Below, one piece after another: positions 2,204-5,374 of a stretch of DNA of 64,000 bases (within the stretch, counting starts at the first letter, position 1; each line of letters opens with the position of its first letter). The notes under the pieces are model-generated. The model was not told the DNA's origin. It did not search any database and saw only the letters and a program-made list of their open reading frames with translations. The translations under genes were made by a program, and so were the position numbers. The DNA lies in contig CAWFYQ010000009.1 of the NCBI GenBank assembly GCA_963820005.1, positions 19,063 to 83,062 of the forward strand. Reading direction: 5' to 3'. Source of the DNA: an uncultured Alphaproteobacteria bacterium (GTDB lineage Bacteria; Pseudomonadota; Alphaproteobacteria; Rhizobiales; Methyloligellaceae).

Positions 2204-3835
2204 TCATCGGGCGACCTCCCAAGTGGTGACCAGCTCGCCGGTCTTGGGGTCCTTGGCGTCCTTCAGCATGATGCCCATCGCTTCAAGCTCGCCGCGGATG
2301 CGGTCGGCCTCCTTGAAGTCGCGTGACTGACGCGCAGCGACTCGCTCCTTAATTTGTGAGTTGATGGACTCGACCGCGCCGTTGACCCGCCTAACGTCGC
2401 CCACCCGCAGAGCCGGGCCAGCCCAGCGAAGCGCTTCGTTTATTGCGGCAACTTCGGCCTTCAGGTCTTCAAGGTTCGAGTTGCGCAGTACAGCGAGAGC
2501 ACGCGACACCGGATAGTTTTGCGGGAATAACAACATGAATCCGCGTATGACGCTGCGGATATCTGCGCCTTGCGCTAACTCAGGCATTGCGTACCCTTGA
2601 TCACGCACACGCTGGGCTAAGCCGACGAGTTCTAGAGAAGCCCTGAGCGCGGCTCCAGCGTCGATGTCTCCGCCGCGCGCCTCTGAAGAGAGTTCGTACA
2701 GGCGAGTGATCGCAGCTGGACTGTTGAGATCATCCATCATCAGAGCGAGAAATTCGGCATCCGGCTCACTCGACGCGTAATCCTCGGCAACATCGAGAAG
2801 CTCAAAGTAGGATTTGAATGACTCCTCGAGTCCCGTCTGTGTCCAATTTATGGGTTGCCTGTAGTGGGTGCGAAGCATGTTGAACCGAAGAACGTCGCCG
2901 GGCCACTCCTCGAGCAATTCATGCACGGTGACGAAGTTGCCGGCCGACTTCGCCATCTTCTCTCCCTCGACCTGGAGGAAGCCGTTATGCATCCAGACCT
3001 GCGCCATGATCGGCGTGGCGTTGGCGCAGCGCGATTGCGCCAATTCGTTCTCGTGATGCGGAAACACGAGGTCGATGCCGCCGCCATGGATGTCGAACAT
3101 ATGCGGCTCGGCCAGCCCCGCCGGTGACAGGGTCGGCTTAGCCTCCTCCCACAGCCAGCGATCGGCCATGGCCGAGCACTCGATATGCCAGCCCGGACGG
3201 CCAGGGGTGGCGATGCCCGCGGGCGAAGGCCAAGACGGCTCGCCCGGCTTTGACGGCTTCCACAGAACGAAATCCATCGGGTCGCGCTTGTAGGGCGCGA
3301 CCTCGACCCGGGCGCCGGCGACCATCTCGTCCAGCGAGCGGCCCGACAGCTTGCCGTAATCCGGCATGGACGCGACATCGAACAGCACATGGTCCTCGGC
3401 GACGTAGGCTGAGCCGCGCTCGACCAGGCGCTCGATCATCGCCTTCATCTCAACGATATGCTCGGTCGCCCGCGGCTCGACGGTCGGATCGAGCGCGCCG
3501 AGCGCCTTCATGTCGGCGTGGAACTGGTCGGTGGTCTTGGTGGTGACCAGCCGGATCGCCTCGTTCAGGGGCAGGCCTGGATAGTCTTGGCCCGCGCGCG
3601 CGTTGATCTTGTCATCGACGTCGGTGATGTTGCGGACATAGGTGACGTGCTCAGGGCCATAGATGTGCCGGAGCAGCCGGAACAGCACGTCGAACACGAT
3701 GACCGGGCGCGCATTACCGATATGGGCGAAGTCATAGACCGTCGGCCCGCAGACATAGATCCGCACATTGGCAGGATCGAGCGGACGGAACTCGTCCTTC
3801 TTCCGCGTCAGCGTGTTGTAAAGCTTAAGCGCCAC
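2204..3835 (-). CDS. cysS: Cysteine--tRNA ligase with an elongated C-terminal linker
   Basis: [46 protein letters not shown] and DDLNSP motifs. GTG start. Confidence 0.97.
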
Positions 3836-3838
3836 AGT

Positions 3839-3857
3839 CCAAGCCCCTTCGGCTTGG
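3839..3857 (-). promoter_or_regulatory. Hairpin overlapping the cysS ribosome-binding site
   Basis: On the minus strand CCAAGCC-GAAGG-GGCTTGG forms a 7-bp stem ending 3 nt before the GTG. The SD-like AAGGGG lies in its loop and 3' arm. Confidence 0.55.
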
Positions 3858-3925
3858 CCCGCCCCAGCGTTCTTGACAAGATCGAGTTTGGATAAAGAAG
3901 GAACGACCCGGGCGAGCGATGTTTG

Positions 3926-3979
3926 CTAGCCAGGAATGATGCCGCAGGAAATGATAAGGATGGGTTGCTCTTGCATCAT
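3926..3979 (-). CDS. Putative 17-aa leader peptide (uORF) of cysS
   Basis: ATG ATG CAA GAG CAA CCC ATC CTT ATC ATT TCC TGC GGC ATC ATT CCT GGC TAG = MMQEQPILIISCGIIPG*. It starts 10 nt after a predicted -10 box. Confidence 0.6.
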   Translation of the reverse strand: MMQEQPILIISCGIIPG

Positions 3980-3989
3980 CTTGGGGGTG

Positions 3990-4018
3990 CTTATGGCGGG
4001 AATTGGTGAAACCGTCAA
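3990..4018 (-). promoter_or_regulatory. Predicted sigma70 promoter for the leader-cysS transcript
   Basis: TTGACG (4018-4013), 17-nt spacer, CATAAG (3995-3990). Confidence 0.65.
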
Positions 4019-4111
4019 GCGAGCCTGCTTTCCGGCCCTTTCTCGAACGGGACCTTGCCGGCCATCTTATTGATGCCTCATTGACCCCCGAGTTTAGCCC
4101 TGCATAATGCG

Positions 4112-5374
4112 TTGGTGGCTTCCCGGGGATTGGAACCAGTCGTGAGGGTCAATCGCGATTTTCGGCGCGTGATCGCGTCGTCCATTCGGTCGATCGGCGG
4201 GCGCCGGCTCGCCGCATTCGCGCTTGGCGGCATGGTTGCCGTTGCCGCCGGTGCCGGGCTCGCGCTGGCGCAAGGGGCTAACGACCAGCAGATTCGCTGC
4301 ATGCAGCTCCAGCAGGAATTGGTTTCAGCGTCGCAAGGCGGCGGCGGCAGCAGCGACGACCTCGCCCGCCTCGACCAGCAGATCGCCCAGAACGACCGCG
4401 TGTTCCAGGGTACCCAGGCAGCCATGCAGGATGCCGGCTGCTTCGAGAGCTTCTTCATCTTCGGCAAGGCGCTGGTGCGCAGCCCGAAATGCCTCAAGAT
4501 GAACGACCGCGTCGAGGATGCGCGCCGTCAGCTTGCCGCGCTCCAGCAGCAGCGCGCGGCACTTTCGGGTGGCGGCGGAAACAGGCGACGCCAAGCCGAG
4601 CTTCAGGATGCGATGGTGCGCAGCGGCTGCGGCGGTCAGGTCCGCGCGCCGGCACCGAGGCGCGGCGGCGGCTTGCTCGACTTCTTCGGCGGCGGGCAAG
4701 AGCAGGACGACGAGCAGCAGCCCGAAAGCCCGGTCTATCGCAGCATCGACCCGAACGGGCGCTATCGCTCGGTCTGCGTGCGGCTCTGCGACGGCTTCTT
4801 CTATCCGATCAGCTTCGCCACCTATTCCAGCCGTCTGGCGCAGGAGCAGGACCAGTGCCAGTCGAGCTGCGCCGCGCCCGCCGAACTCTACGTCTATCGC
4901 AATCCCGGACAGGAGATCGAGCAGGCCATCTCGCTGAACGGCTCGGCCTATATGGACCTCCCCGTCGCGCTCAAATATCGCAAGTCCTATGTGACCGGCT
5001 GCTCCTGCAAGCAGGCCGAATACAATCCGACCGAGATCGAGGCCGCCAACAAGCGCGCTGAGGCCGATGCCGCCGCGCAGCCCGGCAAAAACAAGGGCAA
5101 GGGAAAGGTCGCGGCGAAGCCTGCTCCCGCCACGGCCGCCGCCACGGCAGCCCAAACCGGCGCGCAGGGCAATCCCGACGTCACCGGCAGCAATCAGGCG
5201 GCGGGCGCTGCGCCGCAAGCTCCGCCTGCCGTGCCGCAGGCGCAGAAGCAGCCGGCGCCGGCCAAAGCCGCCGCGGTAGCGCCACCACCGGCGCCGTCAC
5301 AGGCCGATGCCGCGGCCAGTCAGTCGACCGTCATCAAGAAGGTCGGCAAGCCGGCCCCGCCTCCCGCGCAGTAG
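4112..5374 (+). CDS. DUF2865-domain secreted protein with an Ala/Pro-rich tail
   Basis: RSVCVRLCDGFFYPIS...CQSSC...YRKSYVTGCSCK signature and an N-terminal hydrophobic signal. True start uncertain, possibly further downstream. Confidence 0.8.
   Translation: MVASRGLEPVVRVNRDFRRVIASSIRSIGGRRLAAFALGGMVAVAAGAGLALAQGANDQQIRCMQLQQELVSASQGGGGSSDDLARLDQQIAQNDRVFQGTQAAMQDAGCFESFFIFGKALVRSPKCLKMNDRVEDARRQLAALQQQRAALSGGGGNRRRQAELQDAMVRSGCGGQVRAPAPRRGGGLLDFFGGGQEQDDEQQPESPVYRSIDPNGRYRSVCVRLCDGFFYPISFATYSSRLAQEQDQCQSSCAAPAELYVYRNPGQEIEQAISLNGSAYMDLPVALKYRKSYVTGCSCKQAEYNPTEIEAANKRAEADAAAQPGKNKGKGKVAAKPAPATAAATAAQTGAQGNPDVTGSNQAAGAAPQAPPAVPQAQKQPAPAKAAAVAPPPAPSQADAAASQSTVIKKVGKPAPPPAQ

Follow-up and report, generated by a model that had tools for sequence, protein, structure and literature searches.

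The cysS locus and its promoter

The window analysed here, a stretch of DNA of 64,000 nucleotides, carries on its minus strand a promoter, a short upstream open reading frame (uORF), a spacer and the cysS gene, all located where the original prediction had placed them. The sigma70-type promoter, TTGACG-N17-CATAAG, is present at 4018-3990 (-). Its -35 box, TTGACG (4013-4018), is kept across related loci. In 66 of 68 of these, TTGAC(G) stands 29-33 nt 5' of the uORF start codon, with no SD, and the uORF therefore appears to be leaderless or nearly so. The -10 box, CATAAG (3990-3995), follows 17 nt past the -35 box and belongs to a family pattern CATnnn. The window clade and Hyphomicrobium-type loci have CATAAG, and Xanthobacteraceae- and Bradyrhizobium-type loci have CATTGT, CATGGT, CATATG or CATTCT. 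The promoter at 4018-3990 was missing from the output of the promoter scan because CATAAG does not have the final T at position 6.

From the spacing, transcription is predicted to start at 3982-3984 (-), 6-8 nt past the -10 box, which would leave a leader of only 3-5 nt ahead of the uORF AUG. The -10 box and the ATG are separated by 10 nt (CACCCCCAAG), and this segment has no purine run resembling a Shine-Dalgarno (SD) sequence, in agreement with the earlier description of a uORF lacking an SD.

Sequence and conservation of the leader uORF

The uORF spans positions 3926-3979 (-), with ATG at 3979 and TAG at 3928-3926, and comprises 17 codons followed by UAG (MMQEQPILIISCGIIPG). As first described, its distal part is rich in Ile and Cys, with five Ile codons (7, 9, 10, 14, and 15) placed around codon 12, the single Cys codon. 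The proposed stall codons (3935-3946, (-)) are Cys12 (3946-3944), Gly13, Ile14 (3940-3938), and Ile15 (3937-3935), which lie three to six codons before the stop. When all six frames of the 64-kb window were searched, the uORF tail was the only stop-terminated stretch of nine residues with at least five Ile plus Cys.

The original prediction proposed looking for a conserved Ile/Cys uORF 5' of cysS across Hyphomicrobiales, and such a uORF was found in about 73 of 79 loci. These uORFs comprise 13-27 codons and end 70-140 nt before cysS. The uORF of locus L081 matches that of the window at 100%, and those of 14 clade members are nearly the same. Ten uORF lengths occur across the order, and the frame from the promoter-proximal ATG to the conserved UAG is always intact. 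The stop codon is TAG in 69 of the 73 uORFs, and the motif nGC-UAG-C is invariant order-wide.

The amino acid composition of the tail is the most persistent property of the peptide. In 19 diverse representatives, 39% of the last nine residues are Ile and 18% are Cys, and neither Leu (3.8%) nor Val (2.5%) is enriched over the whole peptides; general hydrophobicity or AU-richness is therefore insufficient to explain the Ile content. Codon -3 encodes Ile in all 66 unique uORFs and is ATT in nearly all of them, and ATT accounts for 71% of the Ile codons in uORFs versus 14% in cysS genes. Ile codons exceed Cys codons two- to five-fold, the window having five to one. Most relatives carry Cys-x-x-Cys or one Cys, and tandem Cys codons occur in a few loci (L009, L031, L036, L065). 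The N-terminal half of the peptide is variable and the sequence drifts between clades, whereas the Ile/Cys composition and its placement beside the stop persist.

At the codon level, the Ile and Cys positions of the 16-codon group vary mainly synonymously (ATC/ATT, TGC/TGT), with ATC and ATT alternating at position 7 and Ile retained, whereas codons 5 and 6 are free. Over the whole uORF, third positions do not dominate the codon-position entropies. Conserved local helices take in some of the Ile and Cys codons: in the window clade, AUGAUGC pairs with GCAUCAU, and in Xanthobacteraceae-type leaders, the codons lie partly inside the ICGICRE hairpin; RNA-level constraint therefore accounts for part of their conservation.

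The cysS-(40-aa ORF)-cimA operon

The cysS gene (2204-3835, (-)) starts with GTG and encodes a cysteine-tRNA ligase of 543 aa (TIGR00435, 417 bits against a cut-off of 340; PF01406). Its start codon is aligned in 78 of 79 loci. Between cysS and cimA lies a conserved hydrophobic ORF of 40 aa (1948-2070, (-)), which is called as a gene in L081, L083, L084, and L090, with a 4-nt overlap between its start and the end of cysS. The third gene is cimA (338-1938, (-)), encoding (R)-citramalate synthase, with which the citramalate pathway to isoleucine begins; the intact L001 orthologue of the gene scores 661 bits with TIGR00977 (cut-off 450). In the window itself, a 1-nt deletion near 1362-1367 breaks cimA in two. 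Public metagenome contigs carry an extra C at this frameshift site. The window also has a structured insertion of 136 nt between cysS and the 40-aa ORF; in the closest relatives, the operon genes overlap by 4 nt or stand 10 nt apart.

Linkage to cimA is widespread. Of 80 loci, 72 have the gene 3' of cysS in the same orientation, and five of the eight without it are truncated; it is also downstream in all seven long metagenome contigs. Among loci of sufficient length to judge, the one exception is the genus Ancylobacter (L052, L067), which has neither the cimA linkage nor the leader. The presumably co-transcribed cimA is the likely reason for the Ile codons, and through the Cys codons, CysRS could report on its own product.

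Metagenome and transcript data

The loose DNA pattern used for the metagenome scan matches many chance sites by itself (78/120) and is informative only because the Ile/Cys uORF and cysS co-occur perfectly among the matches. All 30 testable matches with an Ile/Cys uORF precede cysS, and none of the 78 matches without cysS carries one. The uORF recurs in 33 metagenome contigs, before cysS wherever this is testable.

In RNA-seq from a related organism, sense-strand reads run unbroken from the leader into cysS. Because of divergence in the upstream part of the reference, the alignments of raw RNA-seq reads from related organisms begin only at the 3' end of the uORF. The RNA-seq of one relative showed no excess of leader over gene-body coverage, in a type of library that loses short terminated RNAs. 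In run X26, leader RNA appeared to be in 27-fold excess; attenuation was considered as the cause and rejected, as the signal came from a second, more abundant organism sharing k-mers. A cysS entry was sought in the B. japonicum dRNA-seq supplements and not found. The public runs that contain the window organism are of metagenome DNA only.

Two mutually exclusive helices in the leader

The uORF stop region (GCUAGC) is complementary to a downstream segment, which is alternatively complementary to a third one. Region 1 (3925-3934, (-); CCUGGCUAGC) comprises the last two codons, the UAG and one more base, and forms the 5' arm of hairpin 1:2. Region 2 (3901-3917, (-); GCUCGCCCGGGUCGUUC) is the switch strand, whose partner is either region 1 or region 3. 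Region 3 (3857-3872, (-); GAACGCUGGGGCGGGC) forms a long helix with region 2, the proposed ON or anti-attenuator form. The sequences of region 1 (GCUAGCG) and region 3a (GCCAGCG) are almost identical. The alternative hairpins 1:2 and 2:3 are the strongest structural argument for attenuation. The first reading of the sequence had not spotted these conserved, mutually exclusive helices.

Helix 1:2 is 92-96% paired compared with 16-54% in slid controls, and its duplex z-score is -2.6 in the window and -3.1 on average over 66 sequences. No covariation was seen in this helix in the order-wide alignment because both strands are invariant. The duplex of helix 2:3 has an energy of -27.6 kcal/mol and a z-score of -4.1 in the window (mean -2.5 over 66 sequences), against an energy of -12.8 kcal/mol for helix 1:2. 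Order-wide, 83% of the cells of helix 2:3 with its apical hairpin are paired versus 35-44% when slid. The same structure has 26 double-change cells versus 7.6±2.5 in shuffles, none of 500 shuffles being as high, and a C-G to G-C swap in helix 2:3 was read by eye from the alignment in L003 and L006. Moreover, 78 Xanthobacteraceae- and Bradyrhizobium-type leaders fit both exclusive folds, with 94% and 90% of positions paired.

In simulated co-transcriptional folding, helix 1:2 forms earliest and is replaced by 2:3 once region 3 exists. Given the large energy advantage of 2:3 over 1:2, an OFF state could exist only as a kinetic trap. The nucleotide conservation of the leader is very strong, as in GCUAGC, GCUGGC, GCCGUC, and ACGCCC. 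RNAalifold applied to the order-wide alignment returned a meaningless consensus of six pairs, which is what a switch with shifted registers would be expected to give, and counts over the named structures were used instead. A further helix between uORF codons 2-5 and region 2b, which would give a terminator-like three-way junction before the U tract, was rejected for the window clade, where it is not significant (z -1.0). In Bradyrhizobium- and Xanthobacteraceae-type leaders, it is backed by correlated GAGG/CCUC and GGAG/CUCC variants, and it is a candidate closing helix.

Spacer, terminator search and cysS ribosome-binding site

The spacer is C/U-rich and G-poor, as noted at the outset: the 52 nt after the stop contain 18 C, 16 T, 10 A, and 8 G, in a window of 64% G+C. 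It is half enclosed by helix 2:3. Directly 3' of region 2 lies a pyrimidine- and U-rich tract, CUUCUUUAUCC (3890-3900, (-)), and a pyrimidine tract occupies the same position in every clade (CUUUUCUC, CCUCCUUUA, CCUUCUCCC). Possible roles are those of a weak terminator tail, of a portion of a rut-like stretch with more C than G, and of a weak anti-SD.

The scan found no terminator-like sites in 3300-4600, which bears out the initial view that there is no U-tailed terminator, and a canonical intrinsic terminator (3:4 hairpin plus U run) was not found in the window. A hidden 3:4 partner for region 3 was looked for in the first 150 nt of cysS and none was found (z -1.8 to +1.1). Pairing between region 1 and the cysS initiation region, suggested by the full-length MFE structure, was not significant in any clade and was discarded.

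The cysS SD (GAAGGGG, 3850-3844) is part of a hairpin, CAAGCC-GAAGG-GGCUUG (3840-3856, (-)), which is present in every predicted state. It is 93% paired in the window clade, with one-sided changes only, and appears to be constitutive. The unpaired probability of the SD is 0.41 under the OFF mask versus 0.45 under the ON mask in the window, and the mean gain order-wide is 0.05. For the window, the calculations thus argue against translational control through the SD, one of the two outputs first suggested, as SD accessibility is nearly equal between the states. In some Xanthobacteraceae-type loci, the pairing of region 3 with the cysS SD (3:4) reaches z-scores of -2.4 to -4, with accessibility changing by +0.2-0.3. 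In the window clade, the equilibrium always favours 2:3 and the SD hairpin stays the same, so the decision must be kinetic. Kinetic, Rho-dependent or weak intrinsic termination seems the likeliest output in the window genome.

Proposed mechanism

The conserved uORF, its Ile/Cys tail, and the cimA linkage together predict a dual Ile + Cys leader peptide for the cysS-cimA operon. Along with the leaderless spacing and the near-synonymous change, they support the leader-peptide reading proposed originally. We consider it probable, with fairly good confidence, that the element is a ribosome-mediated dual Ile + Cys attenuator with a leaderless or near-leaderless sensor of 17 codons, controlling cysS-(40-aa ORF)-cimA.

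In such an attenuator, the sigma-70-type promoter (4018-3990) would set the RNA 5' end 3-5 nt upstream of the AUG (3979), as judged from spacing, and a ribosome would translate the uORF, as the conservation of the frame, the start codon and the synonymous sites suggests. With ample Ile-tRNA and Cys-tRNA, the ribosome would reach the UAG inside region 1 and depart. Region 1 (3934-3925) and region 2 (3917-3908) would then pair once region 2 has appeared, giving the attenuated state, provided that the presumed timing holds. When either charged tRNA is scarce, the ribosome would be expected to stall with Cys12, Ile14 or Ile15 in its A site. The footprint of the stalled ribosome would cover region 1, leaving region 2 to pair with region 3 (3872-3857) in the read-through state.

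The decision would be made kinetically, during transcription of the pyrimidine-rich, G-poor spacer, either by weak intrinsic termination at hairpin 1:2 with the U-rich tract or by Rho binding to the spacer while it is exposed. Some of the Xanthobacteraceae may instead have a translational version of the switch, in which region 3 pairs with the cysS SD (3:4). A fuller model is offered tentatively, as we are slightly more inclined to doubt it than to accept it. In this model, the leaderless uORF integrates Ile and Cys charging and co-regulates cysS and cimA without a canonical terminator. A hairpin with the stop codon embedded in it (GCUAGC, nearly always with a UAG read by RF1) would compete with the stronger helix in a kinetic race that leads to Rho-dependent or non-canonical termination, and sister families would have been rewired to SD sequestration.

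Alternative explanations

The alternative that deserves most attention is an attenuator that responds to Cys only, in which Cys-tRNA autoregulates CysRS, the Ile codons act at the RNA level, and the cimA linkage is coincidental. The Ile codons might then provide an AU-rich unstructured approach to region 1 or pair with a 5' AUGAUG or AUCU segment. Cys-codon leaders of cysS with no stated role for Ile are indeed described in Rhodobacterales (PMC8632094) and in Deinococcus deserti (PMC4007540), several Ile codons lie inside conserved helices, and the ATT bias could be a nucleotide constraint. Nevertheless, Ile is both the most conserved and the most enriched residue (66/66 at codon -3; 39% of the tail), with two- to five-fold more codons than Cys, and its enrichment persists in clades with differing local helices. 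Position 7 alternates between ATC and ATT while keeping Ile, and the linkage to cimA is near-universal. We therefore regard a Cys-only device as unlikely.

A structured 5'-UTR element that binds a ligand, a protein or a tRNA, with an incidental reading frame, would fit the very strong nucleotide conservation, the two well-supported folds, and the substitution pattern of the whole uORF, which lacks a third-position excess. It is quite improbable given the leaderless promoter distance of the start codon (66 of 68 loci), the intact frame of all ten length variants, each closed by the conserved UAG, and a composition that is kept where the sequence varies. Moreover, Rfam gave no match for the window or five representative loci, and the stems are simple alternatives with no conserved junction or pocket-like core. 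Even less probable is that the ORF encodes a hydrophobic Ile/Cys micropeptide with a function of its own, such as binding metal or acting in a membrane, and is merely co-transcribed with cysS. The ORF is conserved, and its cysteine and hydrophobic residues could bind metal or enter a membrane; however, the peptide differs between clades in sequence, sharing only composition and the Ile/Cys placement by the stop. Its N-terminal half is variable, its length ranges from 13 to 27 residues, and its stop codon is embedded in a switch helix. That the uORF is a chance frame in a GC-rich intergenic region by an ordinary promoter is hardly credible. Short stop-free frames are common in DNA of 64% G+C and CATAAG is an imperfect -10 box missed by the promoter scan, but the uORF tail is unique in 64 kb over six frames, and chance is contradicted by the presence of the uORF at about 73 of the 79 related loci and on 33 metagenome contigs.

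Comparison with known systems

Searches against Rfam 15 gave no relevant match, either for the window at E-values up to 10 or for five representative loci at E-values up to 1, and no covariance model for T-box or known riboswitch leaders of aminoacyl-tRNA synthetase genes matched. The Ile + Cys, cimA-linked form of leader was found neither in Rfam nor in the literature searched.

The closest published relative is the uORFC-8-2 motif, a predicted ribosome-mediated attenuator 5' of cysS in Rhodobacterales, with 145 examples, proposed to raise CysRS at Cys-tRNA shortage (Brewer et al. 2021, RNA Biol, PMC8632094). It has two tandem Cys codons at positions 14-15, and two stems with a terminal U run as an intrinsic terminator. 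Its reported distribution is limited to Rhodobacterales, and Ile codons and cimA linkage are unmentioned (PMC8632094). Both elements stand directly 5' of cysS in Alphaproteobacteria and have a short uORF with a conserved AUG and Cys codons (mostly UGC) in paired RNA. Compared by published description, the Hyphomicrobiales element differs in having one or two Cys codons, usually non-tandem, together with three to seven Ile codons, and in its predicted leaderless start, its 1:2 / 2:3 switch and cimA downstream. In the window, there is one Cys, at codon 12, rather than a tandem pair at about 14-15, and there are no two stems ending in a U-run intrinsic terminator.

Leaderless Cys-codon uORFs are also on record. 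The cysS leader of Deinococcus deserti has one and is a proposed cysteine-responsive attenuator (PMC4007540), and mycobacterial polycysteine uORFs are leaderless and reported as cysteine-responsive attenuators of downstream genes (bioRxiv 10.1101/834739). The resemblance is that the transcript begins at or beside the AUG of a short ORF with Cys codons, a feature predicted here from spacing. These leaders differ in belonging to other phyla, in having Cys-only peptides and another RNA architecture, and in having no Ile and no cimA.

Leaders of cysS with Cys codons have been predicted earlier in Rhodobacterales and Deinococcus, and in the literature searched, the Ile + Cys form linked to cimA appears to be undescribed. 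If the attenuator operates as proposed, it would be a multivalent sensor that couples the synthetase's own amino acid (Cys) with the unrelated Ile, owing to the citramalate synthase of the operon, and the codon content of a leader could be read as a predictor of co-transcribed genes. It would also be a leaderless attenuator kept across Hyphomicrobiales, an order of soil bacteria, including Bradyrhizobium, Rhodopseudomonas, Hyphomicrobium, and Methyloceanibacter, genera that are genetically tractable and of agricultural or environmental relevance. One sensor, the uORF with its 1:2 / 2:3 switch, would have differing outputs in sister clades and would thus offer a natural system for the study of expression-platform exchange. 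Finally, the citramalate route to isoleucine, which has received little study in Alphaproteobacteria, would gain a concrete regulatory entry point.

Multivalent leaders are familiar from Enterobacteria, where the thr leader contains Thr and Ile codons and the ilvGMEDA leader Ile, Leu, and Val codons. The pheST leader places an aminoacyl-tRNA synthetase under attenuation, so a synthetase gene can be governed by an attenuator. The present element resembles these enterobacterial attenuators in that codons for several amino acids match the operon products, lie just 5' of region 1, and are followed by exclusive hairpins. It differs in its predicted leaderless start and in having no 3:4 terminator in the window, whereas theirs combine an SD-led uORF with a 3:4 U-run terminator, and in that Cys and Ile are biosynthetically unrelated.

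For the output, tnaC-tnaA and mgtL-mgtA are Rho-dependent attenuators controlled by a uORF, which respond to free Trp through the nascent peptide and to Pro/Mg2+, respectively. They may be output analogues, as the position of the ribosome on the uORF exposes or hides a C-rich, G-poor Rho site with no intrinsic terminator; the sensed signals are other ones, and there is no sequence relationship. A smaller likeness concerns codon choice, the rare CUA codons of the leu leader being comparable to the non-preferred ATT codons of the present uORFs.

Conservation of the leader in Hyphomicrobiales

Comparative evidence supports the original prediction of an attenuator ahead of cysS. The element is probably a ribosome-mediated Ile/Cys leader-peptide attenuator, judging from the compared sequences, and we lean slightly towards both amino acids, Ile and Cys, really being sensed. 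On the minus strand of the window, the -35 box TTGACG (4018-4013) is followed after 17 bases by CATAAG (3995-3990), and 10 bases without a Shine-Dalgarno (SD)-like run separate this -10 box from the uORF ATGATGCAAGAGCAACCCATCCTTATCATTTCCTGCGGCATCATTCCTGGCTAG (3979-3926), which encodes MMQEQPILIISCGIIPG. The simple promoter scan did not report this promoter because the -10 box lacks the final T. The 52 nt after the uORF stop comprise C18, T16, A10, and G8 by composition count, and the window has a G+C of 64%. The cysS gene (543 aa; TIGR00435, 417 bits) starts with GTG at 3835. Re-reading the sequence thus confirmed the predicted promoter, SD-less uORF, C/U-rich and G-poor spacer, and cysS start, and a simple terminator scan agreed that no U-tailed terminator is visible. 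In all six frames of the 64-kb window, only the uORF has at least five Ile+Cys in a stop-terminated nine-residue stretch.

Conservation of an Ile/Cys uORF ahead of cysS, the check proposed with the original prediction, was examined in 80 loci from a CysRS-based scan with one genome per species. All were of Hyphomicrobiales type (Xanthobacteraceae, Bradyrhizobium, Rhodopseudomonas, Hyphomicrobium, Methyloceanibacter, Methyloligellaceae, Rhodomicrobiaceae, Beijerinckiaceae, Methylobacterium, and many MAGs), the nearest having 75% CysRS identity. Upstream sequence was available for 79 loci, and about 73 of them have the uORF, an ORF of 13-27 codons with an Ile/Cys-rich tail ending 70-140 nt ahead of cysS. 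The peptide MMQEQPILIISCGIIPG of the window clade corresponds to MNGLNHICGICREIIR in Xanthobacteraceae-type loci, MNGLLAICAICREITS in Bradyrhizobium, and ...CCGIICCIISS, MKTTICICGIIIR, ...LCICEIIITG, MMICAITSGICIAC, and ...SICCIIIAS elsewhere. The 15 members of the window clade, gathered via near-identical CysRS, have an essentially identical leader; the CysRS of one relative (L081) is 98% identical to that of the window.

A TTGAC(G) -35 hexamer was present in 66 of 68 loci, 29-33 nt from its end to the uORF start codon. After a 17-nt spacer and a -10 hexamer, 6-10 nt remain; therefore, the uORF AUG coincides with the predicted TSS or lies only a few bases from it. None of these 68 loci has an SD ahead of the uORF. 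Ten uORF lengths occur, all with a promoter-proximal ATG in frame with the conserved UAG.

Among 19 mutually divergent representatives, the last nine residues contain 38.6% Ile and 18.1% Cys, and the whole peptides 3.8% Leu and 2.5% Val. In 40 distinct 16-codon uORFs, changes at Ile/Cys positions are almost only synonymous (position 7, ATC 22 and ATT 10; position 8, TGC 29 and TGT 5), and codons 5 and 6 are variable at each of their three bases. All 66 unique uORFs have Ile three codons before the stop. ATT accounts for 71% of Ile codons in the uORFs versus 14% in the neighbouring cysS genes. Of 73 leaders, 69 end the uORF with UAG, always within the palindrome GCUAGC. UAG is read by RF1 only, and the preference may reflect the pairing need of region 1 (below) alone or a release-factor-specific effect as well.

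Three loci from Hyphomicrobium and Xanthobacteraceae MAGs (L035, L041, and L079) have lost a recognisable Ile/Cys uORF and still have cimA after cysS; L035 retains a TTGACG-N17-CATAAG promoter. They are natural loss variants for comparing cysS-cimA expression.

Linkage to cimA

The orthologue of the window cimA (1938-338, minus strand) is a citramalate synthase (TIGR00977 equivalog, 661 bits; cut-off 450). This gene is located downstream of cysS, in the same orientation, in 72 of 80 loci (among the other eight, five are truncated) and in 7 of 7 long metagenome contigs. The closest relatives show a 4-nt overlap between the cysS stop and the start of a 40-aa ORF, and 10 nt separate this ORF from cimA. 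One locus (L082) shows a direct cysS/cimA overlap, and in two of Xanthobacteraceae and Bradyrhizobium type (L010 and L058) the gap is filled by same-strand ORFs with overlapping or abutting ends. Ancylobacter (L052 and L067), the sole genus without cimA beside cysS, lacks the leader too. A metagenome scan with a loose DNA pattern of the switch core gave 120 hits. Of these, 33 had an Ile/Cys uORF, and all 30 of those with enough sequence precede cysS; among hits without cysS, none of 78 had such a uORF. An Ile+Cys leader is the expected governor of an operon for CysRS and the first enzyme of a route to isoleucine, a link that is correlative.

In the window, the hydrophobic 40-aa ORF MIRFLKDAPFKGSRGVYLAIKLAVLALAVLLALHFLFGVV (2070-1948, minus strand) lies between cysS and cimA, where it is conserved. 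It had no match in Pfam or NCBIfam and is annotated as a gene in relatives; the L010 and L058 operons contain a comparable small-membrane ORF. In the window, a 1-nt deletion at 1362-1367, as compared with L001, breaks cimA into two overlapping frames (1938-1240 and 1414-338). Contigs of near-identical organisms from two public metagenome runs have one more C behind 1362, which repairs the frame, and cimA is intact (533 aa) in the closest relatives. An assembly error is the probable cause of the frameshift; otherwise, the gene would be a strain-specific pseudogene.

The window also carries a very strongly folded 136-nt insertion (2071-2206; RNAfold -69 kcal/mol) that separates the cysS stop from the 40-aa ORF, precisely at the site of the cysS-stop/small-ORF-start overlap in L081, L083, and L084. 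L001, L086, L003, and L006 have this element at the same position, and partial copies occur elsewhere (L003 6169-6256, L045, and L063). It resembles palindromic elements of the REP/MITE type. Its presence breaks the translational coupling of the genes and might influence cysS-cimA co-transcription.

Mutually exclusive helices and proposed sensing geometry

The original prediction overlooked three pairing regions that would form a switch; its attenuator interpretation is sharpened by them. On the minus strand, region 1 (CCUGGCUAGC, 3934-3925) is the uORF end including the stop, with xGC-UAG-C invariant order-wide. Region 2 (GCUCGCCCGGGUCGUUC, 3917-3901) and region 3 (GAACGCUGGGGCGGGC, 3872-3857) have the Xanthobacteraceae-type counterparts CGCUGGCUGCGGCCGUC and GGACGCCCGGCCAGCG, respectively. 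Region 2 is complementary to both others, GCUAGCG in region 1 and GCCAGCG in region 3a being near copies. Helix 1:2 is the proposed attenuated (OFF) state and 2:3 the read-through (ON) state.

Duplex energies compared with shuffles gave a mean z over 66 leaders of -3.1 for 1:2 and -2.5 for 2:3; the window values are -12.8 kcal/mol (z -2.6) and -27.6 kcal/mol (z -4.1). In the order-wide alignment, 83% of cells are paired in 2:3 plus its apical hairpin versus 35-44% with a slid partner, and both-side-changed cells number 26 versus 7.6±2.5 in shuffles (0/500 as high). Helix 1:2 is 92% paired order-wide versus 16-43% slid (window clade, 96%), and its support is conserved complementarity only, because it never varies. 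Reading the clade alignment by eye, we found a region 2 C-to-G change in L003 and L006 that has a compensating change in region 3 and improves 1:2 as well. Across 78 Xanthobacteraceae- and Bradyrhizobium-type leaders, the two exclusive folds are 94% and 90% paired; such an equal fit, as modelled, is what a switch looks like. Which fold wins in single-sequence MFE predictions changes from species to species. Simulated co-transcriptional folding of the window leader gave 1:2 first and 2:3 once region 3 exists.

In the window uORF, Cys12, Ile14, and Ile15 lie 6, 4, and 3 codons from the stop, and codon 16 is the first of region 1. Assuming a ribosome shield of ~14 nt from the first base of the A-site codon, a ribosome stalled at any of the three would reach or cover most of region 1, leaving region 2 free for region 3. 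A ribosome at the UAG would shield region 1 together with part of region 2 before departing, whereupon the freed region 1 would trap region 2. These positions appear to fit classical attenuation logic.

Additionally, in the window clade, the 5'-terminal AUGAUGC (3974-3979) can pair with GCAUCAU in the Gly13-Ile14-Ile15 codons (3936-3942) on the minus strand; across 15 sequences, 97% of this helix is paired, and its changes are one-sided and of G·U type. As modelled, it would hide the leaderless start codon after ribosome passage or without a bound ribosome, and it might limit re-initiation or serve as a pause hairpin.

The output step

The original prediction allowed Rho-dependent or translational control. 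For the window, our models argue against the translational option: the unpaired probability of the cysS SD/start was near-equal with regions 1 and 2 blocked (0.41) and with only region 1 blocked (0.45), and the SD sits in a small hairpin (3856-3840) present in every predicted state. No significant partner of region 3 was found in the first 150 nt of cysS, nor any pairing of region 1 with the cysS initiation region. Helix 2:3 is more stable than 1:2 by ~15 kcal/mol; therefore, any OFF state would have to be a kinetic trap. This stability, the unchanged SD, and the lack of a canonical terminator and of other partners point to a transcriptional decision, which would be made while polymerase passes over the pyrimidine-rich, G-poor spacer. 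Hairpin 1:2 with the CUUCUUUAUCC tract (3900-3890) could give weak intrinsic termination, or Rho could load on the spacer while 2:3 has not closed it. On these models we moderately favour a termination-type over a translational output in the window, with Rho and intrinsic termination both possible.

In some Xanthobacteraceae-type loci, a 3:4 helix joins region 3 to the SD region (z -2.4 to -4), and the ON mask makes the SD more accessible by 0.2-0.3. Because the summed 1:2 and 3:4 predicted energies roughly match 2:3, this clade may plausibly have a translational version. A further pairing, of uORF codons 2-5 with region 2b, occurs directly 5' of the CUUUUCUC tract in Bradyrhizobium- and Xanthobacteraceae-type leaders and is backed by correlated GAGG/CCUC and GGAG/CUCC variants; the predicted structure is a terminator-like three-way junction. 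The equivalent pairing was not significant in the window clade (duplex energy versus shuffles).

The window organism is known from metagenome DNA runs only. In stranded raw-read RNA-seq of a related organism, unbroken sense reads of similar depth run from the uORF 3' end through cysS; therefore, the leader belongs to the cysS mRNA in that organism. Upstream of the uORF 3' end the reference is divergent, so these reads give no TSS. In one run, leader RNA appeared to be in excess; this was rejected as an attenuation signal, its source being a second organism in the sample.

Relation to known leaders

The multivalent thr and ilv leaders and the attenuated synthetase operon pheST are textbook cases. 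A Cys-codon leader ahead of cysS is, as a general idea, already known. The predicted uORFC-8-2 motif of Rhodobacterales, exclusively upstream of cysS, has two tandem Cys codons and an intrinsic terminator (Brewer et al. 2021, PMC8632094), and Deinococcus deserti cysS has a leaderless 10-aa leader with two Cys (De Groot et al. 2014, PMC4007540). A preprint reports leaderless polycysteine uORFs as cysteine-responsive attenuators in mycobacteria (bioRxiv 10.1101/834739). The Hyphomicrobiales element has neither tandem Cys codons nor a U-run terminator, both defining for uORFC-8-2; we therefore class it, by its features, as a leader-peptide attenuator variant outside that motif. Our literature search found no description of the Hyphomicrobiales element, an Ile+Cys leader, or any cimA-linked leader, and no Rfam family matched the window or five representative loci. 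The element is conserved order-wide, apparently undescribed, unusual in its input pairing, and directly testable in model rhizobia.

Neighbouring features

The window CysRS (gene 2204-3835) carries ~55-60 extra residues (~410-481) between the DALR region and the C-terminal anticodon-binding domain, as defined against a 484-aa relative that shares 77% identity with it in the first 440 residues. With CysRS lengths of 460 to 563 aa in relatives, this linker is a hotspot of length variation. On the plus strand, a good sigma-70-like promoter (4081-4108; TTGACC-16-CATAAT, 10/12 matches) faces a divergent DUF2865 gene (PF11064; 4112-5374). Only 4 nt separate the end of its -10 box from the first possible start codon; by sequence, either this gene would be leaderless too or its true start lies further in. 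The gene order gltX-like, DUF2865 gene, cysS is kept in the clade (L081, L083, and L084).
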